Below, in pieces: positions 5,288 through 60,214 of a stretch of 60,339 nt of DNA (position 1 is its first letter; every line of letters starts with the position of its first letter). The DNA is taken from the NCBI GenBank assembly GCA_012797775.1, contig JAAZOM010000023.1, forward strand, positions 1 to 60,339, given 5' to 3'. The notes below the pieces were generated by a model. That model did not search any database and was not told where the DNA came from. It saw only the letters and a list, made by a program, of their open reading frames with translations. The position numbers and the translations under genes were made by a program. The stretch comes from Candidatus Kuenenbacteria bacterium (lineage in GTDB: Bacteria > Patescibacteriota > Patescibacteriia > UBA2196 > GWA2-42-15).

Positions 5288-5442
5288 TAAAAAAGAACCA
5301 AAAGGTTCCTTTTTATAATGAGGGATTTTCCCTCCAGCCTTGAGGCGACGCACGAGCCAGGGTTTTGCTTACCTCTATCTTAAACCCTTATCACCAATTG
5401 TCAATAGCCCAAAATATTATTAGCCATAAATTAATCTTTTTT

Positions 5443-5685
5443 ATGAAAAAACTCCTTACCGCCCAATTTGTTGTCCTACTTATTGGTACGCTTTTTGCCT
5501 GGTTCAATTTTGGCCGCGAGCTTATTAGTTGGTGGAGTAGTGGCACCTGTGAAATTGGCTGCCCCGGCAATATCACCAATCCTTTTCTGACCCCTTGTTT
5601 TGGTGGCGCCATATTTTTTACCATTGCCTTCGTCTTGAGTATTATTATCCTCAAGAAATCAAAGCAGGCAACCCAAAATCAATAA
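5443..5685 (+). CDS. Small membrane protein (80 aa, two hydrophobic helices)
   Basis: ATG 5443 within ORF 5365..5685 gives MKKLLTAQFVVLLIGTLFAWF... plus a second helix. No family recognised. Confidence 0.5.
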   Translation: MKKLLTAQFVVLLIGTLFAWFNFGRELISWWSSGTCEIGCPGNITNPFLTPCFGGAIFFTIAFVLSIIILKKSKQATQNQ

Positions 5686-9427: not shown

Positions 9428-10825
9428 TCACTCCTTTTGTTCCGTTATCGGTTCCATAATCATTTCTCTTACTACCCCGCCCCTTGTTTCTCTGACAGTA
9501 ATTTTTAGGGGCTGTTGTGTATTTGCGTTTTTGGATACGATTTCCAACAGCCTCGCCACCATTCCATTCCATTCACCATCCCCATCATCGCTCGGGGGAT
9601 GGTTGTAGACTGGCTTTACCCCTGTTCCGGCTTCAGTGGTGCTATCTTTTGGTAAAATTAGTTCAGCTTTTTCTCCAGTTGCCTTTTCTACCATTTGGGG
9701 GGCGGAAGCGGGCGGCTCGATTTTTGTAGCGTGTATTTCCTGGACATCCGATGTCAACGGACTTTGGGTCACGGACACATCCACTATCGCCGAGGAGGAA
9801 AAGCGATATTGTTTATGGAGCGGATTAAAGCCACTTTCTGACTGAGTTAGCTCCGTCAGCCCTTCAGATTTAACCATTACCGGGCAGAGATCGCGCCTAT
9901 TTTCAGTCGTGCCGCTAATCATAGTTTTTCCCCCTGGGGGAAGGCTGGCGATCTTTGTTTTTGCACCAGCAGAGATATACAGCAGCTTGGTTTGTTGACT
10001 TGGCTGGGGAACTGGCTGCTGGTCTGGCTGTCGAGCCGGCTGGTTTTCGGGGTCCAGACTGAGAATATTCTTGATTTGGAATTTGCATACCCCGGGTTTC
10101 CCCTCGCAAGGCACGAGTTCTCCCCTGACCAAGATCGGTACATAGCCTGGGTAGGGCCGCGTTTCGTGGCCAGTCAGCCATGACCTTCTTTTCCTCCCCC
10201 CTGTTTTTTTTCCTTGGAGACCGAGTTTTGTATTATAACTTATATACAAAACTTTGGTTTCAGCAGGAGTTGGTTCTTTTTTTCCCATTACGATTGCCTC
10301 CCTGTTTGCTTCGCTTATTTCATGCGGCGGGTGTCTTTTATAATCACATACAAGATACCCATCTTCCGTTTCCTCCACCCAGCAATTGCTGGGTATCTCC
10401 ACTGGCATCCGCTCTTTTCCTTGTTCATCCCAGGCAGGAAAGTAGCCATCTTCGGCCAGGAGCAGCTGCCAACTTACTGGGGCATATAGTCGTATATCTC
10501 TGACCAGAATATCACCTATTCTTATCTGAAACATAGGTCCGAGACCGCCCCCGATATTTCCCCTCAGGGAGGTTTTATCTATCTCCTGTCTTCCCGTAAC
10601 GAGAACCAGTATTTGCCCCCGAGAAGACTTTGCCAGATGAGCATAGCGAGTCTGACAAACTATGCGGGGCATGTTTGGAGCCTGATCATCGGCCATAAAA
10701 AGCAGGGCCTCTTCGGCAATCCTATCCCCTTGAAATCTCAGTTTGCTGACTTTTTGTGTCGGAGAAAGATCGTGTCTTCCTGCTCGGGTTCTTTTTTTTT
10801 GCTTCCGAGGCAAAGTCGTCATCAT
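9428..10825 (-). CDS. Hypothetical 465-aa protein (large GC-richer ORFan)
   Basis: Long ORF with visibly higher G+C and a Gln/Pro-rich linker (QPARQPDQQPVPQPSQQ). No recognised motif. The start region has an A9 tract and an overlapping alternative ORF. Confidence 0.6.
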   Translation of the reverse strand: MMTTLPRKQKKRTRAGRHDLSPTQKVSKLRFQGDRIAEEALLFMADDQAPNMPRIVCQTRYAHLAKSSRGQILVLVTGRQEIDKTSLRGNIGGGLGPMFQIRIGDILVRDIRLYAPVSWQLLLAEDGYFPAWDEQGKERMPVEIPSNCWVEETEDGYLVCDYKRHPPHEISEANREAIVMGKKEPTPAETKVLYISYNTKLGLQGKKTGGRKRRSWLTGHETRPYPGYVPILVRGELVPCEGKPGVCKFQIKNILSLDPENQPARQPDQQPVPQPSQQTKLLYISAGAKTKIASLPPGGKTMISGTTENRRDLCPVMVKSEGLTELTQSESGFNPLHKQYRFSSSAIVDVSVTQSPLTSDVQEIHATKIEPPASAPQMVEKATGEKAELILPKDSTTEAGTGVKPVYNHPPSDDGDGEWNGMVARLLEIVSKNANTQQPLKITVRETRGGVVREMIMEPITEQKE

Positions 10826-11501: not shown

Positions 11502-12974
11502 TTATTTCTTTTTCACCACGCTTTTACCATCCGCATCTTCCACCACAAAGCCCAATCCATCAATTTTTTTTCGTAGCTCATCTGCTTTTGTCCAGTCTTT
11601 ATTTTTTCTGGCCTTATCCCTTTCCGCCACCAAGCTTTGCACTTCTTCTGGCACGGTGATTTTTTCTTTTTTTATTTTATCCAATCTTAATCCCAATACC
11701 TTGTCAAAATCCAAGATCAATTTCTTTTTATCAGGGTAGGGGAGTGAATCGTCTTTCATAATTTCCCAAACTACTGACAAAGCCGCTGGAATATTAAAAT
11801 CATCCGAAATATAAGTGATAAATTGTTGTCTATATTTTTGGATTTGTGATTTGTGATTTATTTTGTCTGCCTGCCGGTGGGGCAGGGATTTTGGATTTGG
11901 AGCTTGTGATTTACCCTTTTCGCCAGCGGCCATAAAATCTTTTAATTTCTGGTATGCCACCTTACTGGCCTCAAGTCCTTCCCAGGTAAAGTTTTGTTTA
12001 CTCCGATAATGCGCCTGCAAAAAGAAATAACGCAACGCCATCGGCTCAAAGCCCCTTTCTTTCACTTCACTCAAGGCATAGCCAGTGCCTTCGGATTTCG
12101 CCATTTTTTTATTATTCACCATTAGGTGTTCGTTGTGCAGCCAGTAATTAACAAATTTTACCCCATTAGCCGCTTCACTCTGAGCTATTTCATTGGTGTG
12201 GTGCACAGGGATATGTTCCACTCCACCCATATGAATATCAATCGTTTCTCCCAAGAATTTTTTGCACATGACCGAACATTCAATGTGCCAGCCCGGGAAA
12301 CCCTCACCTTTTTTTACCAGTTTTGACTTGAATGGGGATTTCCAATATTGCAAGGCGTTTTGGTGCTTGCCAGCACGGAAAAACCATAAGGCAAAATCAG
12401 CGGCATTCTTTTTGCCCGGATCGCTCACTTCCCCCTTGCCGGCATCTTTGATATTTTCTTCCATTTTTTGGCCAGATAGCTGAGTATATTTTTTTGCTTT
12501 ACTGATATCAAAATAAACCGCCAGATCGGTTTCATAAGCATAGCCATTTTTTAGGAGGGTTTTTACCATTTGGACCACCTCTGGGACAACACTTGTCGCT
12601 CTGGGCTTATAGTTCGCCGGCCGGGTATTTAGTTCTTTTATGTCTTGCTCAAAAATTTCAATATATTTTTTGGCAATTTTGTCTGGCTCCAAATTATCGC
12701 GTCGAGACGCCTTTTCCATTTTGTCTTCCCCTTCGTCCGCGTCAGAAGTTAAATGGCCAACATCAGTATAGTTGCGTGTTAGCTTCACCTTATACCCCAG
12801 ATATTCCAAGCCCCTAACTATCAAATCCGCCGTTACCATGCCGCGCATATTGCCAATGTGCTGGGTCCAATAGACTGTCGGCCCGCAATGATACATCAAA
12901 ACCCGCCCTTTTTTGAGTGGCTGGAATTTCTGTTTTTCCCGGCCAAGTGTATTGTAGATGTTGACATTTCGCAT
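11502..12974 (-). CDS. cysS: Cysteine--tRNA ligase
   Basis: CGPTVY, an HIGN (HIGH-type) motif, KMAKS (KMSKS-type) and the DDFNIP anticodon-domain motif. Confidence 0.9.
   Translation of the reverse strand: MRNVNIYNTLGREKQKFQPLKKGRVLMYHCGPTVYWTQHIGNMRGMVTADLIVRGLEYLGYKVKLTRNYTDVGHLTSDADEGEDKMEKASRRDNLEPDKIAKKYIEIFEQDIKELNTRPANYKPRATSVVPEVVQMVKTLLKNGYAYETDLAVYFDISKAKKYTQLSGQKMEENIKDAGKGEVSDPGKKNAADFALWFFRAGKHQNALQYWKSPFKSKLVKKGEGFPGWHIECSVMCKKFLGETIDIHMGGVEHIPVHHTNEIAQSEAANGVKFVNYWLHNEHLMVNNKKMAKSEGTGYALSEVKERGFEPMALRYFFLQAHYRSKQNFTWEGLEASKVAYQKLKDFMAAGEKGKSQAPNPKSLPHRQADKINHKSQIQKYRQQFITYISDDFNIPAALSVVWEIMKDDSLPYPDKKKLILDFDKVLGLRLDKIKKEKITVPEEVQSLVAERDKARKNKDWTKADELRKKIDGLGFVVEDADGKSVVKKK
11841..11914. 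repeat. Heptamer arrays flanking a GC hairpin, embedded in frame in cysS
   Basis: GATTTGT GATTTGT GATTTAT TTTGTCT G CCTGCC-GGTGG-GGCAGG GATTTTG GATTTGG AGCTTGT GATTTAC. It shares exact 12-, 11- and 9-mers with the 40966-41156 spacer. Confidence 0.6.
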
Positions 12975-22661: not shown

Positions 22662-22744
22662 TTGATATAAAAAATAAAACCGCCAGATAGACATTTTGAC
22701 CCAGTTTTTCTAGCGGTTTTTGGTTCCCAAAACAGTCTTGGGGT

Positions 22745-22930
22745 TTAAAGAATCCACTCATCTGCTTGCGCGAGATGTGGATATTTTTTTTTCAGCTCTT
22801 CGGCGCCGTTTTCTCCGCCCTCATTTTTGGGCAATATTTTTTTGGGCGCAGTAATAGCGGCAATACAAAGCATGAGCGCGAGGTTACTTGCAGTCGTGGC
22901 TACTTTTGCGATTTCATTTGCAGTACTCAT
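22745..22930 (-). CDS. Hypothetical 61-aa protein downstream of the tRNA-like gene
   Basis: GAGAGAGG lies 6 nt upstream of the ATG. One hydrophobic stretch. No motif recognised. Confidence 0.4.
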   Translation of the reverse strand: MSTANEIAKVATTASNLALMLCIAAITAPKKILPKNEGGENGAEELKKKYPHLAQADEWIL

Positions 22931-22969
22931 AATAAGCCTCTCTCGTTTTTATTTGGGGTTTTATTTTAG

Positions 22970-23041
22970 TAGAGCCGACAGGATTTGAACCTGCGTGATC
23001 CTGAATGTTTGTCAGGTGCCTAGCCGCTCAGCCACAGCTCT
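22970..23041 (-). tRNA. tRNA-like gene with a good cloverleaf but a non-canonical anticodon loop CAAACAU (A at position 33). Isotype unassigned.
   Basis: Acceptor AGAGCTG/CGGCTCT, D-arm GCTG-AGCGGCT-AGGC, anticodon stem CCTGA/TCAGG, T-arm GCAGG-TTCAAAT-CCTGT. No encoded CCA. Confidence 0.6.
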
Positions 23042-23211
23042 GGTAGTTGTTGGTGGATAGGGGTAAAACTAAAAAAGAAAGAACCCAGACTGAGCATAGA
23101 ACCTAGTCCAAAAGGAAATCATTTTGTAGTTTTTAGTATGGCATTGCTTCTGGCGGGGTTTTTATACCCTGGTCATTTTTTAGGGTGGACTCCTGATTTT
23201 TGAGGATAGCT

Positions 23212-23481
23212 CTAGACAAAAAGGCAATATTCACCATTTTCTTCGCCATCTTGTTTCCCTGGTCTTATAACTGGCAACAATAAAAATGACATTTGAGCCG
23301 GTCTTGCCTCTTGGGCTAGAATGGCGACATATTTTTCCACATTGGCAAGCTCTCTCCTGAGCTCCTTAGCCGCTTGTGGTTGTTGCCCACGACGATGATT
23401 TCCTAGCACTCGAAGATAACTAAGGCGCAGCTCGTTGAGTCTTAATTTTAAAGCACTAAGAGCGGTTAGGTCAGACCACAT
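23212..23481 (-). CDS. Hypothetical 89-aa helical protein (GC-richer)
   Basis: AAAGGAGG lies 4 nt upstream of the ATG. The sequence is Arg/Leu/Glu-rich and coiled-coil-like. Confidence 0.5.
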   Translation of the reverse strand: MWSDLTALSALKLRLNELRLSYLRVLGNHRRGQQPQAAKELRRELANVEKYVAILAQEARPAQMSFLLLPVIRPGKQDGEENGEYCLFV

Positions 23482-23603
23482 AAGGCCTCCTTTGTTTTTT
23501 TGTTAATTTTTGTTTTTGGGCCAATACCTTAATATAAAGCTTTTTCTCGGCCCAGTTATGGATTTTTGTTTTTAATTTTTATAGCTGTTCGTGGTTGACG
23601 AAA

Positions 23604-23632
23604 CAAAAAATCGGACCTTTTTATTGCCCGAT
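23604..23632 (-). terminator. Terminator of the 30-aa peptide gene
   Basis: On the minus strand, ATCGGGC-AATAAAAAG-GTCCGAT followed by TTTTTT. Confidence 0.55.
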
Positions 23633-23667
23633 TTTAGGTTATAATTAAAGCTTCTCTAACCCAAAAA

Positions 23668-23760
23668 TCAGGCCAGTCCGATCAACAAAATAATAGCAAT
23701 AATCAAACCAAAGATATTGGTGCTCATGAGGATGTTGATTTGTTTTGCTATCTTATTCAT
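23668..23760 (-). CDS. 30-aa hydrophobic peptide (MNKIAKQINILMSTNIFGLIIAIILLIGLA)
   Basis: Hand-translated. It sits between its own near-consensus promoter and terminator, with a 5' UTR of only about 7 nt. Confidence 0.35.
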   Translation of the reverse strand: MNKIAKQINILMSTNIFGLIIAIILLIGLA

Positions 23761-23773
23761 AGATTGTAGTTTT

Positions 23774-23801
23774 ATTATACTAAATTTTTATAATTGGTCA
23801 A
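23774..23801 (-). promoter_or_regulatory. Sigma70-type promoter TTGACC-16-TATAAT
   Basis: Read on the minus strand, the -10 box ends 13 nt upstream of the peptide ATG. Confidence 0.55.
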
Positions 23802-23891
23802 GCAAATATTTTTTTAGCTAAAATAAGCAATGTTTTTAAATTTTGAATTAAAAATTAAAATTATTATATTTTTATCCACAGTTAGCCAAAG

Positions 23892-23920
23892 TTGACTTTC
23901 GCGAAAAGTTATTCTACAAT
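23892..23920 (+). promoter_or_regulatory. Sigma70-type promoter TTGACT-17-TACAAT
   Basis: TTGACT 23892-23897, a 17-nt spacer, TACAAT 23915-23920. It is divergent from the 23774-23801 promoter. Confidence 0.55.
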
Positions 23921-23931
23921 AACAAGCACAT

Positions 23932-24070
23932 ATGAATACAAAATTATCCAACCATATCAGCTGGAATTTGGCCATCATTAAGAAGGTCTATTTTGACATG
24001 GCTTATTTCCGGGGATAATTACGTTCGAATTAATACAAAAATCACAATCCCCGGTCACAAAGCCGGGGAT
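23932..24070 (+). promoter_or_regulatory. Candidate leader with a 28-codon ORF and mutually exclusive hairpins (attenuator-like)
   Basis: Region A is TCCGGGGAT (24008-24016, overlapping the ORF stop). Region B is ATCCCCGG (24047-24054). Region C is CCGGGGAT (24063-24070). B can pair with either A or C. Confidence 0.35.
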
Positions 24071-24115
24071 TTAAAATTTAAAAATCAAAAAATAAACTGG
24101 AGGGAGGTGAAGCTT

Positions 24116-24169
24116 ATGCCATATCATTTTTATCGCGGCTATGATGATTGCGATCCGCCAACCGAATGA
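24116..24169 (+). CDS. 17-codon micro-ORF (MPYHFYRGYDDCDPPTE)
   Basis: GGAGGGAGG lies 8 nt upstream of the ATG. Coding status is uncertain. Confidence 0.25.
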   Translation: MPYHFYRGYDDCDPPTE

Positions 24170-27678: not shown

Positions 27679-27927
27679 ATGGACAAAAATTTAAAATTGG
27701 AAGTTCTCAAACAGATTTCCGCGCTCGCTTCAGCTGGTTTTGGTCTGGTAGCGGCTTTGGCTTGGAATGAAGCGATTCAAAAATTGTTTGAGGCCATCTT
27801 TGGCAAGCAGTCCAATTTAATTGCTATGTTTGCCTATGCCGTTTTTATTACCATTATCGTCGTAGTGATCTCTATGCAGCTCGGCAAAATGACCAACCGT
27901 CTGACCAAAGACAACGGGCAAAAATAA
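27679..27927 (+). CDS. Small two-helix membrane protein (DUF5654-like)
   Basis: The AAL(A)WNEAIQKLF segment between hydrophobic helices resembles that small-protein family (from memory). Confidence 0.5.
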   Translation: MDKNLKLEVLKQISALASAGFGLVAALAWNEAIQKLFEAIFGKQSNLIAMFAYAVFITIIVVVISMQLGKMTNRLTKDNGQK

Positions 27928-27954
27928 AATTAGCTGTTTTATAATTAACCTGTT

Positions 27955-29115
27955 ATGAAATTAAAAAATTTTTCTGCTCTCAAAAATATTCAGGGCAAGC
28001 GTATTTTGGTGCGTTGTGATTTTGATGTGCCCCTTAAGAATGGGAAAATAATTGACGACAGCCGGCTAAGAGCATGTTTGCCGACAATTAAATTTTTACT
28101 CAAAAAAAGCGCAAAAGTTATTTTAATTGGCCACCTTGGGCGACCGCAGGGTAAATTTTCACCAGAACTAAGTTTGGTGCCAGTGCAAAAACACCTAGAA
28201 AAACTGTTAAAGCAAAAAATTACTTTTATTCCCATCGAGCGTTATGTTGGCGAAGCGGCCAAGAAAAAAGTTAGACAGCTAAAAACTGGCCAGCTCGCCA
28301 TGCTGGAGAATCTGCGTTTCTCTGATCGCGAAGAACTAAATTGCCGTCGTTTTGCCAAGTCATTGGCCGGCTTAGCCGATATTTATATTAATGAAGCTTT
28401 CGCTGTCAGCCATCGTGCGGCCTCCTCCGTCTCCGCCATCAGGGAATATCTGCCGGTCTATTCCGGCTTACACTTGGACGAGGAGATTGAAAAATTATCC
28501 ATTACTCTTAAAAAACCAACTCATCCTCTAACTTTGATTATTGGCGGGGCCAAGATTGAGACCAAATTGCCAGTAATCAAACAATTTATTGATAAGGCTG
28601 AGCATATTCTGATCGGCGGCGCTGTGGCTAATGATTTTTTCAAAGGGCTTGGCTATGAAGTCGGCACTTCTCTTATTGACGAAGAATATATCAAAGATGC
28701 CAACACTATTCTGGAAAAAATTGCTCATTCCCAAACAAAATTGATCCTGCCGCTAGATATTAAAGTCGCCAATGGTAAAAAGGCAATCACGAGAGAGCCA
28801 CACGCTGTTTTGTCTGATGAAATGATTTTAGACATTGGTCCGAAGACCACCAAACTTTATCAAGATATTATTCGCCAATCCAAAATGATTATCTGGAATG
28901 GGCCTATGGGCAAATTTGAAGATCCGCGATTTGCCTCAGGCACCAGGCTGATTACCGAGGGTGTTTTAAAATCGAACGCCAAATCTCTGATTGGTGGCGG
29001 CGAAACTGGAGAGATTTTCAAAAATAAAAAATTACCACAGCATATTTTTATTTCAGTCGGCGGCGGCGCCATGCTCGATTTTTTGGCCGGCAAAAAATTA
29101 CCCGGTTTAAATTAA
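27955..29115 (+). CDS. pgk: Phosphoglycerate kinase
   Basis: RCDFDVPL N-terminal motif, IIGGAKIETKL, and a C-terminal GGGA/GGGE nucleotide site. Confidence 0.9.
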   Translation: MKLKNFSALKNIQGKRILVRCDFDVPLKNGKIIDDSRLRACLPTIKFLLKKSAKVILIGHLGRPQGKFSPELSLVPVQKHLEKLLKQKITFIPIERYVGEAAKKKVRQLKTGQLAMLENLRFSDREELNCRRFAKSLAGLADIYINEAFAVSHRAASSVSAIREYLPVYSGLHLDEEIEKLSITLKKPTHPLTLIIGGAKIETKLPVIKQFIDKAEHILIGGAVANDFFKGLGYEVGTSLIDEEYIKDANTILEKIAHSQTKLILPLDIKVANGKKAITREPHAVLSDEMILDIGPKTTKLYQDIIRQSKMIIWNGPMGKFEDPRFASGTRLITEGVLKSNAKSLIGGGETGEIFKNKKLPQHIFISVGGGAMLDFLAGKKLPGLN

Positions 29116-39196: not shown

Positions 39197-39247
39197 TCCC
39201 GTGGTGAGGGGCGTTTGCGACGGGATCCCTCGCTCCGCTCAGGATAA
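39197..39247. repeat. GC-rich double-hairpin spacer element
   Basis: TCCCGT...ACGGGA and ATCCCTCGCTCCGCTCAGGAT. The reverse complement of 39225-39247 matches 59365-59387 inside tgt at 21 of 23 positions. Confidence 0.55.
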
Positions 39248-39258
39248 AATAAATATTT

Positions 39259-40965: not shown

Positions 40966-41156
40966 GGGATAATAATCAAGGCCCCTACCTCGCCGGCAGG
41001 CGGGCAAGATGCAATTTCCAAATAAGCATCAAGCTCCAAATTCAAAGCACAAAATAAATTTCAAGCATCAATATTCAAATAAATAATTGCTATTCTGAGT
41101 TTTGTTGATTGAGTTTTAAAATTAAGATTTATTTAAAAATTAAAAATTAAAAAATT
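40966..41156. repeat. Composite spacer with a GC hairpin core followed by about 150 nt of degenerate heptamer words
   Basis: CCCCTACCTCGCCGGCAGGCGGGCAAGAT, then ...GCATCAA GCTCCAA ATTCAAA GCACAAA..., then ATTTAAA AATTAAA AATTAAA. It shares words with the cysS and GT insertions. Confidence 0.55.
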
Positions 41157-43187: not shown

Positions 43188-44333
43188 ATGAAAATTGCTC
43201 ACCTAATCTGTAAATTTCCCCCCTACCGTGGCGGCATGGGCAATGTCGCATATGAGCAGGTAAAACGCCTGGCCGAAATGGGCCACGAGGTGACGGTTTT
43301 TACTTTGGATCAAAAAGAAAAATTAGACCCTCAAACTATTAATTTTAAAATAGAATATTTAAATCCCTTATTACGCCTGGGTAATGGCGGTTTTTGTCCA
43401 CAGATTATTAAAAAGCTAAAAGACTTTGATGTTATTCAATTACATTATCCATTTTTTGGCGTGCAGGAAGTTTTGTGGCTGGGTAAAAAATTGGGTTTAA
43501 TTAAAGCCAAATTAGTTATTACTTACCACATGGATGCCAGCTTCGATAATTGGTTTTTGAAATTATTAAGTTTTAAATCATGGTTGATTCGCCGCAGTTT
43601 ATTCAAAATAGCCAAGCAGGTTTGCTCGGCTTCACTAGATTATGTCAGGCATTCCAAGATAAAAAATATTTACCATAAATACCAAGATAAATTTGTAGAA
43701 ATTCCTTTTGGGATCAGCCACTCGCCAGATCAAATAAGCCGCGAGAGATTGGAAAAAGTAAAACAGCAAATTCATTGGCAGGGTGGAGAAAAAAATATTT
43801 TATTTGTCGGCAATCTGGATCGCGCTCATTATTTCAAAGGTGTTGATATTTTACTAAAAGCATTTTACAAGTTACAGGTTACAAGTTACAAGTTGCTAAT
43901 TATTGGCGACGGTGATCTCCGTTTCACTTACGAAAAGCAAGCAGAAGAATTAAAAATTTCCGATCGTGTTTATTTTGCCGGTCGTGTTTCTGATGAAGAT
44001 TTACCTTGTTATTATTATCTTTCTGACGTAGTTGTCCTGCCGTCAATCACCAAAGCCGAGGCTTTTGGACTGGTTTTGGCCGAAGCCGAGAGTTTTGGCA
44101 AACCAGTTATCGCTTCCGACTTGCCCGGCGTCAGGAGTGTGGTGGGTGAGGCAGGTTTATTAGCAAAGCCTGGCGATATTGACGATTTGGCTGAAAAGCT
44201 TAAAATAATTTTATCCAATGAAAATCTGCGTCAGCAATTTTCTGCTGCCGGTTTGAACCAAGTCAAAGCAAAGTATAATTGGGATGAACATGTTGAAAAA
44301 CTTAACCAACTATATAAGAAAACGGGGGAGTAG
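43188..44333 (+). CDS. Glycosyltransferase family 4 (GT-B)
   Basis: C-terminal E..FG.V..EA motif (EAFGLVLAEAESFGKPVIASD) and an N-terminal Gly-rich loop. Confidence 0.8.
   Translation: MKIAHLICKFPPYRGGMGNVAYEQVKRLAEMGHEVTVFTLDQKEKLDPQTINFKIEYLNPLLRLGNGGFCPQIIKKLKDFDVIQLHYPFFGVQEVLWLGKKLGLIKAKLVITYHMDASFDNWFLKLLSFKSWLIRRSLFKIAKQVCSASLDYVRHSKIKNIYHKYQDKFVEIPFGISHSPDQISRERLEKVKQQIHWQGGEKNILFVGNLDRAHYFKGVDILLKAFYKLQVTSYKLLIIGDGDLRFTYEKQAEELKISDRVYFAGRVSDEDLPCYYYLSDVVVLPSITKAEAFGLVLAEAESFGKPVIASDLPGVRSVVGEAGLLAKPGDIDDLAEKLKIILSNENLRQQFSAAGLNQVKAKYNWDEHVEKLNQLYKKTGE
43865..43896. repeat. In-frame heptamer array inside the GT4 gene
   Basis: TTACAAG TTACAGG TTACAAG TTACAAG TTGC, encoding YKLQVTSYKLL. 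Confidence 0.6.
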
Positions 44334-45343: not shown

Positions 45344-46555
45344 ATGGATATTCCCTCACAAAAAACTACCAAAGTTTTAGTTTTTTCTCTTACTTATTTA
45401 CCCTTTATCGGCGGGGCAGAAATTGCCCTGAAAGAAATTACTGACCATCTAGAAAATTTTGAATTTCATCTAATTACGGCTAAAATTAGCCCAGATTTAG
45501 CATCAGAAGAAAAAATAGGCAATATTCATATCAGAAGGCTTGGTCATGGGGGCAAGTTAGATAAATATTTATATCCGCTGCGTGCTTATTCGCTGGCGCA
45601 CAAACTACACTCCCAATATAATTACAATTTAATCTGGGCCATGCTGGAAACCTGGGGTGGTATTGCCGCTCTGTTTTTTAAATTTCGTTTCCCAAAAATA
45701 AAATATCTGCTCACCATGCAGAGTGGTGATTCAGATTGGTTTATCAGGTTGCGGACTTGGTTTTGGTGGCCGCTTTATAAAATGGTTTACACCCGCTCTG
45801 ATCATATCCAAGTTATCAGTAGCTGGCTCGCCAATCGCGCCAGAAAATATGGGTATAAAAAAGAAATTAGCATCGTGCCAAATGGGGTGGATTTAGAAAA
45901 ATTTAAAACTCCTACCGCGCCGGCCCGCTTCAACGCGAGGCGAGCAGGCGAGCAAAATTCAAAATTAAAAATTAAAGAAGAACTAAGTATTAAGCCAGAA
46001 GATAAGATTATTCTCACTGACTCTCGTCTCGTCGTCAAAAATGGTGTCGCTGACCTGATAAAGTCATTCCACTTACTAGTTACTAGTTACAAGTTACCAG
46101 TTACTTTGTTTATCCTTGGTTCCGGTCCCCTAGAAAAACAATTAAAACAATTGGCTACTCAGCTGGGTGTTCAAGATAAAATAATTTTTCTAGGCACTGT
46201 ACCTTATGAAAAGATCGAAGATTATTACCAAGTCGCCGATGTTTTTGTGCGCCCTTCTTTGACCGAGGGTTTCGGCAATGTTTTTGTCCAAGCCATGGCT
46301 GCTGGACTACCGGTGGTGGCCACTCCGGTCGGCGGTATTATTGATTTTCTCAAAGAAGGAGAGACAGGCTGGCTGTGCCAAGTAAAAAAACCAGAGAGTA
46401 TTGCAGAAAAAATAAAATATATTTTAGATGAGCGCAACCAGGCTGAAGTTGAGCGAGTTGTTGTTGGCGCTCAAAAAATGGTGGCGGAAAAATATAGCTG
46501 GGATTCAGTCTCTGACCAGATGAAAGCTATATTTAATTCTCTAATTAATACATGA
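45344..46555 (+). CDS. Glycosyltransferase family 4 (GT-B)
   Basis: EGFGNVFVQAMAAGLPVVATPVGG motif. It overlaps the next gene by 4 nt. Confidence 0.8.
   Translation: MDIPSQKTTKVLVFSLTYLPFIGGAEIALKEITDHLENFEFHLITAKISPDLASEEKIGNIHIRRLGHGGKLDKYLYPLRAYSLAHKLHSQYNYNLIWAMLETWGGIAALFFKFRFPKIKYLLTMQSGDSDWFIRLRTWFWWPLYKMVYTRSDHIQVISSWLANRARKYGYKKEISIVPNGVDLEKFKTPTAPARFNARRAGEQNSKLKIKEELSIKPEDKIILTDSRLVVKNGVADLIKSFHLLVTSYKLPVTLFILGSGPLEKQLKQLATQLGVQDKIIFLGTVPYEKIEDYYQVADVFVRPSLTEGFGNVFVQAMAAGLPVVATPVGGIIDFLKEGETGWLCQVKKPESIAEKIKYILDERNQAEVERVVVGAQKMVAEKYSWDSVSDQMKAIFNSLINT
45909..45979. repeat. GC-core plus heptamer element embedded in frame in the GT4 gene
   Basis: CTCCTACCGCGCCGGC matches 40982-40997 at 14 of 16 positions. 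AGGCGAGCAAAAT resembles 40998-41010. It continues TCAAAAT TAAAAAT TAAAGAA. Confidence 0.6.
46073..46107. repeat. In-frame heptamer array inside the second GT4 gene
   Basis: TTACTAG TTACTAG TTACAAG TTACCAG TTACTTT, encoding LLVTSYKLPVT. Confidence 0.6.
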
Positions 46556-51038: not shown

Positions 51039-51160
51039 TTCTGAAATTTTTAATTTTCAATTTTCAAACAATTTTCAATACTCCAATTCTTCAATTAATT
51101 GAGACATTAAGAAATTGTAACATTCATTGAAAATTGAAAATTCAGTAATTGAAAATTAAC
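51039..51160. repeat. Inverted heptamer-array element (long AT-rich hairpin)
   Basis: The left arm (AATTTTC-type units) and right arm (GAAAATT-type units) are complementary. It shares an exact 17-mer with 57880-57896 and a 14-mer with 1-14. Confidence 0.65.
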
Positions 51161-51164
51161 TCAA

Positions 51165-51239
51165 GCCGCTATCGTCTAACGGTTAGGACGCCAGGTTCTC
51201 ATCCTGGTAATCGGGGTTCGATTCCCCGTAGCGGTACCA
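51165..51239 (+). tRNA. tRNA-Glu (anticodon CUC), CCA encoded
   Basis: GCCGCTA/TAGCGGT acceptor, D-arm GTCT-AACGGTTA-GGAC, anticodon loop TTCTCAT, T-arm GGGGG-TTCGATT-CCCCG, then ACCA. Confidence 0.92.
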
Positions 51240-57864: not shown

Positions 57865-57972
57865 CAATTTTCAATTTATAATTTTCAAACAATTTTATAA
57901 TGTCTTAATTTTTGAATTGAATAATTAGGACATTGTTTTGAAATTAAAAATTAGAAATTAAAAATTGTTTTT
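57865..57972. repeat. Inverted heptamer-array element, homologous to 51039-51160
   Basis: The left arm CAATTTTCAATTTATAATTTTCAAACAATTTT is complementary in vocabulary to the right arm GAAATTAAAAATTAGAAATTAAAAATTG. It shares a 17-mer with 51059-51075. Confidence 0.65.
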
Positions 57973-59056: not shown

Positions 59057-60214
59057 ATGTTTAAAGTTTTAAAACAATCAAAAAAATCCCGTGCCCGCTT
59101 GGGCCTTTTGAAAACGCCTCATGGAGACATTGAGACGCCTTTTTTTATGCCCATCGCTACCAAGGGCTCGGTCAAAGCGCTGACCCCGGAAGATCTCAAA
59201 AATATCGGGGCGAGTATTATCCTTTCCAATACTTATCATCTTTATTTACAACCCGGTTTGGATGTTTTGAAAAAATTTGGCGGACTGCATAAATTTATGG
59301 GTTGGAACGGCCCGATTCTGACCGATAGTGGCGGTTACCAGGTTTTTAGTTTGAGTAATAAAGTTTATCCTGAGCGGAGTGAAGGATTGCGTGGTCCCTA
59401 TTCTTCCCTTGTTAAAATAAACAAGGCTGGTGTAGAATTTCGTTCTTTCCTCGATGGCTCCAAACATTTATTTACCCCAGAGAGTGTTCAGCAGATCCAA
59501 GATGCCATCGGCTCAGACATAAAAATGGTCCTTGATGTCTGCTCACCTCATCCCTGTGCCAAAAAGCAAGCCGAAATTGATCTAAAGCTGACTCACGATT
59601 GGGCCAAGAGAGCGCTGGAATATCACCGCAGAACGCAAAACACAATTAGCAAAGATCAAAAAAATAAAAATCTTTTGTTTGGCATTATCCAAGGGTCAAC
59701 CTATAAAGACTTAAGATTAAACTCTGCCAAATTTTTATCTGGGCTTGATTTTGACGGCCTGGCTATTGGCGGTTTGGCTGTGGGCGAAGACAATAAAACA
59801 ATGTATCAGGTTTTAGATTATACTATTCCCGAACTGCCAGTTAACAAGCCGCGCTACCTCATGGGTGTGGGTAAACCAGAAAATATTATTGAAGCCATCA
59901 AAAGGGGAGTAGATATGTTTGATTGTGTCATCCCCACGCGCGAAGCGCGACACGGCCGGCTATATACCTTTAAAAATAATAAACTTTTGGGCAATTTTTA
60001 TAATGTTATAAACATTCTCAATTCAAAATATAAAAAAGACACCAAACCATTGGATAAAAGTTGTACTTGCGAGTTGTGTCAAAATTATAGCGCCGGCTAT
60101 TTACATCATCTGTTTAAAGCCGGTGAACCTCTAGCTTTGCGTCTAGCCACCTTGCACAATTTAGCTTTCTATGTTAAATTGATAAATCAAACAAAAAATA
60201 AGGAGCTTGTCTAG
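59057..60214 (+). CDS. tgt: Queuine/guanine tRNA-ribosyltransferase
   Basis: TDSGGYQV, LAIGGLAVGE, the CTCELC zinc site and GVDMFDCV. Confidence 0.92.
   Translation: MFKVLKQSKKSRARLGLLKTPHGDIETPFFMPIATKGSVKALTPEDLKNIGASIILSNTYHLYLQPGLDVLKKFGGLHKFMGWNGPILTDSGGYQVFSLSNKVYPERSEGLRGPYSSLVKINKAGVEFRSFLDGSKHLFTPESVQQIQDAIGSDIKMVLDVCSPHPCAKKQAEIDLKLTHDWAKRALEYHRRTQNTISKDQKNKNLLFGIIQGSTYKDLRLNSAKFLSGLDFDGLAIGGLAVGEDNKTMYQVLDYTIPELPVNKPRYLMGVGKPENIIEAIKRGVDMFDCVIPTREARHGRLYTFKNNKLLGNFYNVINILNSKYKKDTKPLDKSCTCELCQNYSAGYLHHLFKAGEPLALRLATLHNLAFYVKLINQTKNKELV
59357..59410. repeat. GC-hairpin element embedded in frame in tgt
   Basis: TTATCCTGAGCGGAGTGAAGGAT (59365-59387) matches the reverse complement of 39225-39247 at 21 of 23 positions. 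It encodes ..KVYPERSEGLRGPYSS.. Confidence 0.55.

Follow-up and report, generated by a model that had tools for sequence, protein, structure and literature searches.

The cysteine--tRNA ligase gene (cysS) of a Candidatus Kuenenbacteria bacterium holds, open in its reading frame, a 74-nt block of repeat DNA in which degenerate heptanucleotide arrays surround a 21-nt GC-rich palindrome. The gene lies on contig JAAZOM010000023.1 (assembly GCA_012797775.1), whose 60,339 nt were analysed as a whole and are referred to below as the window. We read the block as selfish or neutral repeat DNA made up of two nested layers and carried, translated, in an essential gene, and place the probability of this reading at roughly 65%. 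The evidence comes from the anatomy of the block, the homology between its copies, a 21-nt difference in linker length between close relatives, the retention of the frame, the position of the insert in a loop of the enzyme and the recurrence of the arrangement across genes and lineages.

Anatomy of the cysS block

The host open reading frame (ORF) matches Pfam tRNA-synt_1e (E = 1.4e-84) and CysS_C. A first-pass annotation of the window, made from the letters alone, had described positions 11841-11914 as two heptamer arrays flanking a perfect 6-bp GC hairpin, in frame within cysS. That description was confirmed base for base: the interval reads GATTTGTGATTTGTGATTTATTTTGTCTGCCTGCCGGTGGGGCAGGGATTTTGGATTTGGAGCTTGTGATTTAC, identical to the earlier transcription, and it is open within the 490-codon ORF. 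The stem is formed by CCTGCC (11870) and GGCAGG (11881) around a 5-nt loop, and the pattern CCTGCC.{3,8}GGCAGG occurs only once in the window. Compared with the family to which it belongs (consensus CCTGCCTGNCCGGCAGGCAGG, described below), the window palindrome is slightly decayed, having A where the family has G at +21, and C at position 7. Tandem Repeats Finder reports a period-7 array of 3.4 copies at 11837-11859. The hairpin alone is unremarkable, because the coding DNA of the window contains 8 other perfect GC-rich 6-bp hairpins and the 96-nt region folds no better than shuffled sequence (z = -1.27); it is the combination of features, together with the comparative data, that makes it remarkable. 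Coordinates are collected in Table 1.

Table 1 Features of the cysS block and of its second copy in the window
Feature	Position	Strand	Basis and remarks
cysS, cysteine--tRNA ligase, 490 aa, intact host gene	11502..12974	-	ORF list and Pfam
C-terminal-side heptamer array	11837..11865	-	Sense CAAAATAAATCACAAATCACAAATCCAAA; encodes KINHKSQIQK; holds the 11-mer common to 41049-41059
Non-helical linker, codons 350-373, between helices 331-349 and 374-390	11856..11927	-	Hypervariable loop bearing the insert; AlphaFold2 model and alignment
21-nt GC-rich palindrome unit	11866..11886	-	Sense CCTGCCCCACCGGCAGGCAGA; stem at 11870-11886; encodes LPHRQAD
N-terminal-side degenerate heptamer array	11887..11918	-	Sense GTAAATCACAAGCTCCAAATCCAAAATC; encodes ..GKSQAPNPKS; kept in L002 and L001
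Second palindrome core copy	40983..41007	+	CCCTACCTCGCCGGCAGGCGGGCAA; 18 nt downstream of the thyA stop, thyA-folA spacer; 20/25 to the cysS core
Intergenic array-module copy	41030..41067	+	CAAGCTCCAAATTCAAAGCACAAAATAAATTTCAAGCA; 30/38 to the L002 cysS linker

A hypervariable loop of the enzyme

The AlphaFold2 (AF2) model of the encoded cysteinyl-tRNA synthetase (CysRS) has a mean predicted local distance difference test score (pLDDT) of 82.8 and fits solved CysRS structures, among them that of the tRNA complex 1u0b (TMq 0.77). The first-pass annotation had raised the question of a surface loop at this site. The insert falls in a low-confidence stretch (pLDDT < 50 for residues 354-369) flanked by two confident helices. 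In an alignment of 47 Patescibacteria CysRS sequences this segment, which separates the helix ..AYxKLxxF from the helix YKxKFIxxISDDFNIP, stands out by far as the main hot spot of insertion. The distance between the AHYR and DDFNxP anchors is 76 residues in the window and 57 in minimal Patescibacteria enzymes (+19), and linker content is unrelated between proteins that are about 75% identical overall. A linker of equal length, conserved among orthologues, would have spoken against a repeat origin. The orthologues show none: many have minimal linkers, and the content of the others differs. Several linker peptides resemble translated repeat DNA (KLEIGNWKL, NFQFPISNFQ, ITDYKLPASPTGRQITDYK). The site tolerates varied length generally, since the solved Elizabethkingia CysRS has a gap at the linker and the Borrelia CysRS (3sp1) has a long linker of similar length. 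The sequence that we take to be E. coli CysRS aligns with an 18-residue gap at 349-366, at the site of the insert. Taken with the AF2 model, these observations suggest a disordered, unconstrained surface loop in which the insert would be tolerated rather than useful to the enzyme.

A second copy in the thyA-folA spacer

The first-pass annotation had also noticed words shared, in reverse orientation, with the spacer downstream of thyA. The thyA and DHFR genes flanking this spacer were confirmed by Pfam, and the coordinates of the shared words proved exact: the 12-mer at 41030 is the reverse complement of that at 11895, the 11-mer at 41049 of that at 11856, and the 9-mer at 40993 of that at 11869. 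The 12-mer, CAAGCTCCAAAT (41030-41041), lies in the N-terminal-side array of cysS, which forms part of the 38-nt module with a homologue in the thyA spacer. Among all tiles of the window, the one with this spacer shares the most 8-mers with the block, 11 against 6.96 +/- 1.6 in dinucleotide shuffles; the other sharing tiles (1851-1950, 27926-28050) are T-rich coding sequence and were rejected as element copies.

The annotation had allowed that such matches might be no more frequent than in shuffled controls. They exceed that level, marginally for the block as a whole and clearly for its hairpin core and its array module. The 25-nt core CCCTGCCCCACCGGCAGGCAGACAA matches 40983-41007 at 20/25 positions, loop bases included; the next best site in the window scores 16, and a single one of 300 shuffled cores reaches 20. 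For the 38-nt spacer module, the best match in 2.7 Mb of fetched DNA is the cysS linker of the closest relative, L002 (30/38; the maximum over 100 shuffled queries is 27). The window cysS itself reaches 30/38 only after deletion of exactly the 21-nt palindrome, which is the maximum over deletion lengths of 0 to 39 nt. The thyA spacer folds no better than shuffles (z = -0.69); on this value and the z of the cysS region, a long structured RNA was rejected.

Two layers of different age in close relatives

Both arrays are common to the three closest genomes, namely the window, L001 and L002. Among these, L001 pairs with L002 as its sister (83% identity), and the window falls outside the pair as outgroup (78-79%). 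L002, whose CysRS is 79% identical to that of the window and which is its closest relative, keeps both arrays in a linker that lacks the palindrome and is shorter by 21 nt (7 codons); in L001 the arrays are accompanied by a different, longer GC hairpin at the palindrome position. The frame is open in all three genomes despite length differences of 21 and 33 nt. The heptamer-array part is therefore old, being common to all three, and only the 21-nt palindrome varies in presence among close relatives. The earlier expectation had been that an extra 20-25 or so residues would disappear from orthologues exactly at the element boundaries. This was upheld in so far as the window exceeds minimal forms by 19 residues and L002 lacks the palindrome, but not for the arrays, which persist in L002 and L001, nor for the boundaries, which are blurred. 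The right array is nearly invariant in the three genomes, with both units changed in parallel (AAATCaCAAATCa in the window, a/a; AAATCtCAAATCt in L002, t/t), the apparent signature of concerted evolution by slippage or conversion.

An independent second pair shows the same relationship. L201/P0005 carries GATTACR arrays with an in-phase 21-nt GC hairpin, and L003 carries the same array unit four times without the hairpin and is 7 residues shorter. Contigs L201 and L202 (both P0005, from different samples) are identical over 21 kb and so give no indel information on population variation. In the more distant L020 (58% identity), GATTTAA arrays surround a long CCTGCC...GGCAGG hairpin in the same CysRS loop. 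The cysS of a Ca. Blackburnbacteria contig (L047, 3657-3672) has a perfect 20-nt palindrome, CCTGCCTGCCGGCAGGCAGG, in frame at a different site, directly before the conserved GFPGWHIEC motif (..GEGPACRQAGFPGWHIEC..).

A GATTTAN x4 heptamer array in L001 (4418-4453) and L002 (4382-4422) codes for KIYDLGFMIED, a conserved C-terminal motif of CysRS. Seven-nucleotide periodicity over a conserved peptide hints at a genome-wide bias towards period-7 homogenisation.

A palindrome family in uncultured genomes

Metagenome contigs were scanned with the pattern CCCTRCCNNNCCGGCAGGCRG, which was built to fit both window copies, and gave at least 128 matches; the figures in this section refer to the approximately 128 matches listed. 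Most of these lie on contigs of 35-50% GC, and several contigs have 2-3 copies. The consensus, in context T|CCTGCCTGNCCGGCAGGCAGG|C, has an 8-bp stem and a 5-nt loop. Conservation extends to bases left free by the pattern: G stands at +21 in 98%, T at -1 in 60% and C at +22 in 63%. This defines a 21-nt hairpin, CCTGCCTG-NCCGG-CAGGCAGG.

The association with heptamer arrays extends to the family and is strong there. A period-7 flank accompanies 17/128 matches, as against 16/2400 random positions at the same loci. Where the two flanks share a 10-mer, its spacing is a multiple of 7 in 18/27 cases (6/48 in controls), and when deletions of 17 to 32 nt were tried, a continuous array was restored only by those of 21 nt, in 11 cases, and of 28 nt, in 6. 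The heptamer unit is specific to the locus, with ATTACGG, GATTTAA, AAATCAC and others represented.

The annotation had seen in the cysS block a sign that palindromic repeats colonise coding DNA, and the scan agrees: between 56 (strict) and 81 (loose) copies lie within long stop-free frames, with one candidate frame-split gene. All reading frames are used, yielding peptides such as PALPAGR, CLAGRQ and LPRRQA. Ten copies were verified in Pfam-matched genes. In nine the domain match spans the insert (Mur ligase, TsaD, LigA, PBP transpeptidase, LpxK, PheT, HemC, a ValRS-type synthetase and class I fumarase), and in PurL the domains matched by Pfam are all downstream of the insert. A single NAD-dependent DNA ligase gene (L092, 6731-8905, contig Ga0210049_1006794) holds three in-frame palindrome/heptamer modules, PKTPASPACLPAGRQNPKP, KPKTPALPAGRYNLKPK and KIKNPCLAGRQEKSKIK. 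The family may extend to other uncultured phyla, as it is in frame in LpxK and HemC on contigs L148 and L180, genes not typical of Patescibacteria.

A scan of viral contigs gave 25 matches, mostly on high-GC contigs, often without the conserved G at +21 and none with arrays, and thus offers no indication of a phage vector. Among the 84 array-less copies, the identity of the flanks does not peak at any lag, and a target-site duplication was accordingly not found; peaks at lags of 28, 35 and 42 appear only where arrays are present. On these grounds, target-site duplication or an excision footprint is unsupported as a general origin of the arrays. On one contig (L014, 5320-5501), a duplicated 5' half of tRNA-Glu is truncated in the anticodon loop by a palindrome, CCTGCCTACTGGCAGGCAG, and some 70 nt further downstream lies an intact tRNA-Glu (5428-5501).

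Period 7 is also the dominant tandem period of the window. After a 19/21 detection cut-off had been judged too strict and relaxed, 8 arrays were found at this period, against 0-2 at other lags that are not its multiples and 0 in shuffles. Five of the 8 fall in the 9% of the DNA that is intergenic. In 80 fetched cysS loci, 24 arrays occur at lag 7 and 5 at lag 8.

Alternative explanations

The palindrome and its arrays might instead have arisen purely on the spot, by slippage in an unconstrained loop and by a chance or template-switch palindrome, with low-complexity resemblance to the thyA spacer and no dispersed element at all. The locus-specific heptamer units and the lack of a target-site duplication in array-less copies fit such an origin, as does the marginal excess of 8-mers shared by the block as a whole. 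So does the fact that heptamer arrays also encode conserved peptides of normal length, both in glycosyltransferase-1 (GT1) paralogues of the window and in the KIYDLGFMIED motif, which suggests a genome-wide mutational bias. We nevertheless consider a local origin unlikely. It leaves unexplained the agreement of the 25-nt core in its loop bases and the placement of the 38-nt spacer module exactly on the orthologous linker of another genome. Furthermore, a 21-nt sequence with conserved positions that no search pattern enforced recurs as an exact insert in more than 120 unrelated contigs, and repeated origin by chance is very unlikely.

A functional cis-acting element is a still weaker candidate and appears improbable. 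The block could in principle act as an antisense terminator or roadblock, or as an mRNA hairpin with a heptamer platform for a binding protein that tunes translation or stability of cysS, the intergenic copies then serving as 3'-untranslated or intercistronic stabilisers in the manner of repetitive extragenic palindromic (REP) sequences. On the plus (antisense) strand the hairpin at 11866-11886 is followed by GATTTTGGAT, and on that strand only it passes a terminator-like consensus scan. The intergenic copy follows closely on the thyA stop, the heptamer arrays of the window mostly sit just downstream of genes, and CspB-type proteins bind heptamer repeats (PMC4679880). Against this, the palindrome is missing from the cysS of the closest relative, and the content of the loop is wholly different at about 75% protein identity. 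The terminator scan finds 5 sites where 3.3 are expected, and an adjacent A or T run accompanies only 3/126 family members, which argues against a terminator reading of the family. The local fold is no better than shuffles, and a gathering-threshold Rfam scan of the whole window returned two tRNAs and one L10 leader with no match at either copy.

A lineage-specific extension of CysRS selected at the protein level, for example for an extra tRNA or partner contact, is highly improbable: although the insert keeps its frame in the window, L001 and L002, has the abundance of Lys, Gln, Ser and Pro that many RNA-contacting tails show and has a counterpart in the long linker of Borrelia CysRS, its amino acids are not conserved across relatives, the loop is disordered in the AF2 model, the DNA module recurs both in non-coding DNA and, with every reading frame used, inside unrelated enzymes, and protein-level selection cannot explain a 7-nt DNA periodicity with a palindrome.

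A two-layer model and its limits

For the reading as two-layered selfish or neutral DNA, the following course of events is proposed. The first layer would be a degenerate heptanucleotide module of about 40-55 nt, a dispersed repeat with a copy in the thyA-folA spacer, which would have entered the inter-helix loop of CysRS before the window lineage split from L001 and L002. It would since have been kept in frame while its 7-nt units were homogenised by replication slippage or gene conversion; we infer slippage as the way in which the arrays evolve. The second layer would be the 21-nt palindrome of the widespread CCTGCCTGNCCGGCAGGCAGG family, copied as an exact unit into the middle of the array. 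Because 21 nt equals three heptamers and seven codons, and because the palindrome is free of stops in all six frames, both the phase of the array and the reading frame are preserved. The protein would gain seven residues (LPHRQAD) in a disordered surface loop, and both layers would be tolerated because this loop is unconstrained. The insert is thus presumed to have no function for the enzyme. The palindrome may spread by active copy-and-paste, either in a REP-like way through an enzyme that acts on hairpins or by gene conversion from other copies.

Several observations weigh against this reading. Since L001 and L002 are sisters and the window is their outgroup, parsimony does not favour gain of the palindrome in the window over its loss in L002, and divergence of the flanks blurs the boundaries of the length difference between window and L002. 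The resemblance of the whole block to the thyA spacer is only marginal, 6/200 shuffles reaching 11 shared 8-mers. The 60-kb window shows just two copies, and their identity of about 80% gives no hint of recent transposition. Among the 12 window ORFs scanned against Pfam, none is a transposase or resembles a RAYT (REP-associated tyrosine transposase), and a classical cut-and-paste mechanism of the kind used by miniature transposable elements with inverted repeats (MITEs) is unsupported, since array-less members have no target-site duplication. The enrichment of palindromes in arrays could come in part from the accumulation of both wherever DNA is unconstrained. Translation of the segment, finally, is judged from conservation of the frame.

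The palindrome can itself be divided into three heptamers, CCTGCCT + GNCCGGC + AGGCAGG, the third of which is the reverse complement of the first. Tentatively, palindrome and arrays might be two products of one undescribed DNA-handling process that keeps a 7-nt register and operates in Patescibacteria, perhaps also in further uncultured lineages, and in which a dedicated enzyme would copy the palindrome specifically into arrays; they would then form a new class of ultra-short mobile element that remodels protein loops. Under such an enzyme, loops of aminoacyl-tRNA synthetases, LigA, TsaD and Mur ligases would have been colonised across the whole radiation.

Relationship to known repeats

Rickettsia palindromic elements (RPEs) are about 100-150 bp long, are palindromic over their full length and occur both between genes and in frame in essential genes. 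They were reportedly described by Ogata and colleagues in 2000. The first-pass annotation had called the cysS block an independent analogue of them, and as an analogy this is supported, in-frame repeats extending to many essential genes. Like RPEs, the present elements are dispersed, hairpin-capable repeats found in spacers and in frame in essential genes, in surface segments where the fold can accommodate them, within a genome that is small and reduced (translation being deduced here from the frame). Unlike RPEs, the block is 74 nt long, its palindrome of 17-21 nt is nested in direct heptamer repeats, and its layers differ in age. Length and architecture set the two apart; a relationship in sequence is not expected, as the phyla differ. 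RPEs are mentioned in PMC1779305 and PMC10969869.

REP sequences are extragenic and have a GTAG or CGTC head (PMC3733652), and REPs and bacterial interspersed mosaic elements (BIMEs) are mobilised by RAYT transposases (PMC3733652, PMC3184786). The present family resembles REP/BIME as a multi-copy, GC-rich imperfect palindrome of 20-40 nt, with an intergenic copy just after a stop codon in an operon and with no target-site duplication. It differs in that its consensus, T|CCTGCCTGNCCGGCAGGCAGG|C, has neither GTAG nor CGTC as a head and roughly half of the listed copies fall within ORFs, two points that argue against REP membership. Association with heptamer arrays is likewise not a REP feature, and no RAYT is present among the 12 window ORFs scanned.

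Heptanucleotides are the commonest class of long simple sequence repeat (SSR) in bacteria, with polymerase slippage as the proposed origin, according to Mrazek et al. 2007 as reported in PMC4679880, and TAACTGA repeats are known from Beggiatoaceae and Cyanobacteria (PMC4679880). The present arrays share with them the period of 7, the mainly intergenic position near gene ends, the over-representation and the proposed origin by slippage. Whereas the known heptanucleotide SSRs have one genome-wide unit (TAACTGA) or are intergenic, the units here are locus-specific, are read in frame and enclose a nested palindrome.

Yeast mitochondrial DNA has mobile GC clusters, and that of Allomyces has double-hairpin elements; both are short GC palindromes in AT-rich genomes, located in spacers and occasionally in frame (var1), with presence/absence polymorphism. 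They differ from the present family in being organellar and of other sequence, in the short target duplications of the yeast clusters and in having no heptamer-array context. MITEs of Coxiella burnetii (PMC5896051) are small non-autonomous repeats that add peptide segments in a reduced genome, as here; they are longer and have terminal inverted repeats, whereas the present unit is a single 21-nt hairpin with no further terminal inverted repeats and no target-site duplication, the last of which argues against a classical MITE. Membership in RPE, REP and MITE was consequently rejected on features (length and palindromy; head and extragenic location; terminal repeats and target-site duplication, respectively), and the active mobility of the present elements is presumed.

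Searches of the literature on palindromic, in-frame, MITE or tandem repeats in Patescibacteria/Parcubacteria and on the palindrome sequence returned no description of these elements, yielding just background of a general kind on REPs, RPEs and heptamer SSRs. Translated palindromic repeats in essential genes are already known in concept from Rickettsia RPEs and from mitochondrial GC clusters. The architecture, the in-phase 21-nt unit in locus-specific heptamer arrays and the breadth across essential genes of Patescibacteria-type genomes appear to be undescribed in the literature searched.

The genomes of Patescibacteria are tiny and streamlined, and yet their essential enzymes carry translated repeat DNA. 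This indicates that, besides selection, non-adaptive DNA processes shape protein insertions that have been without explanation. The 21-nt palindrome would rank among the shortest dispersed elements known and provides a sharply defined query for the enzyme that spreads it. In practical terms, the modules inflate the apparent divergence of marker proteins, and their intergenic copies create spurious hypothetical ORFs; as fine-scale markers of strains they might be useful as well. Were the process active, it would be a natural source of disordered loops in conserved folds.

Gene neighbourhood and other repeats of the window

CysRS homologues number in thousands. Among the 120 listed, those with names belong to Patescibacteria groups (Buchananbacteria, Falkowbacteria) and the remainder carry the label 'bacterium' only; Kuenenbacteria are likewise represented among named homologues. 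The gene order CorA / small ORF / cysS is kept in a relative. Adjoining the cysS neighbourhood, a 465-aa ORF (9428-10825) has no Pfam match. Hardly any long ORFs occur in about 1.5 kb (22662-24147) around a tRNA gene (22970-23041).

The strongest period-7 arrays of the window lie in two GT1 paralogues, at 43861-43901 (TTACAAG x4.3) and 46067-46106 (TTACTAG x4.7). They encode the segment preceding the conserved LxIxGxG motif (AFYKLQVTSYKLLIIGDG and SFHLLVTSYKLPVTLFILGSG), with no evident increase in length. The second glycosyltransferase also has a GC-rich direct repeat at 45938-45982 (AGGCGAGC x2), after which comes an AAAATTA array; the frame runs through as ..ARRAGEQNSKLKIKEE.. within a variable linker, and this is probably another embedded repeat module. 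At the intergenic positions 51040-51160 and 57865-57972, an AATTTTC-type heptamer array is followed by its inverted copy, which gives a long AT-rich hairpin of arrays. The two sites are about 79% identical over 56 nt, and 4 nt separate the end of the former from the tRNA gene that follows (51165-51236). A 29-nt GC-rich segment (ACGGGATCCCTCGCTCCGCTCAGGATAAA) at 39220-39248 and 59364-59392, inverted, 20 kb apart and with 86% complementarity, one copy being intergenic and one in an ORF, may represent a second type of dispersed GC-rich repeat.

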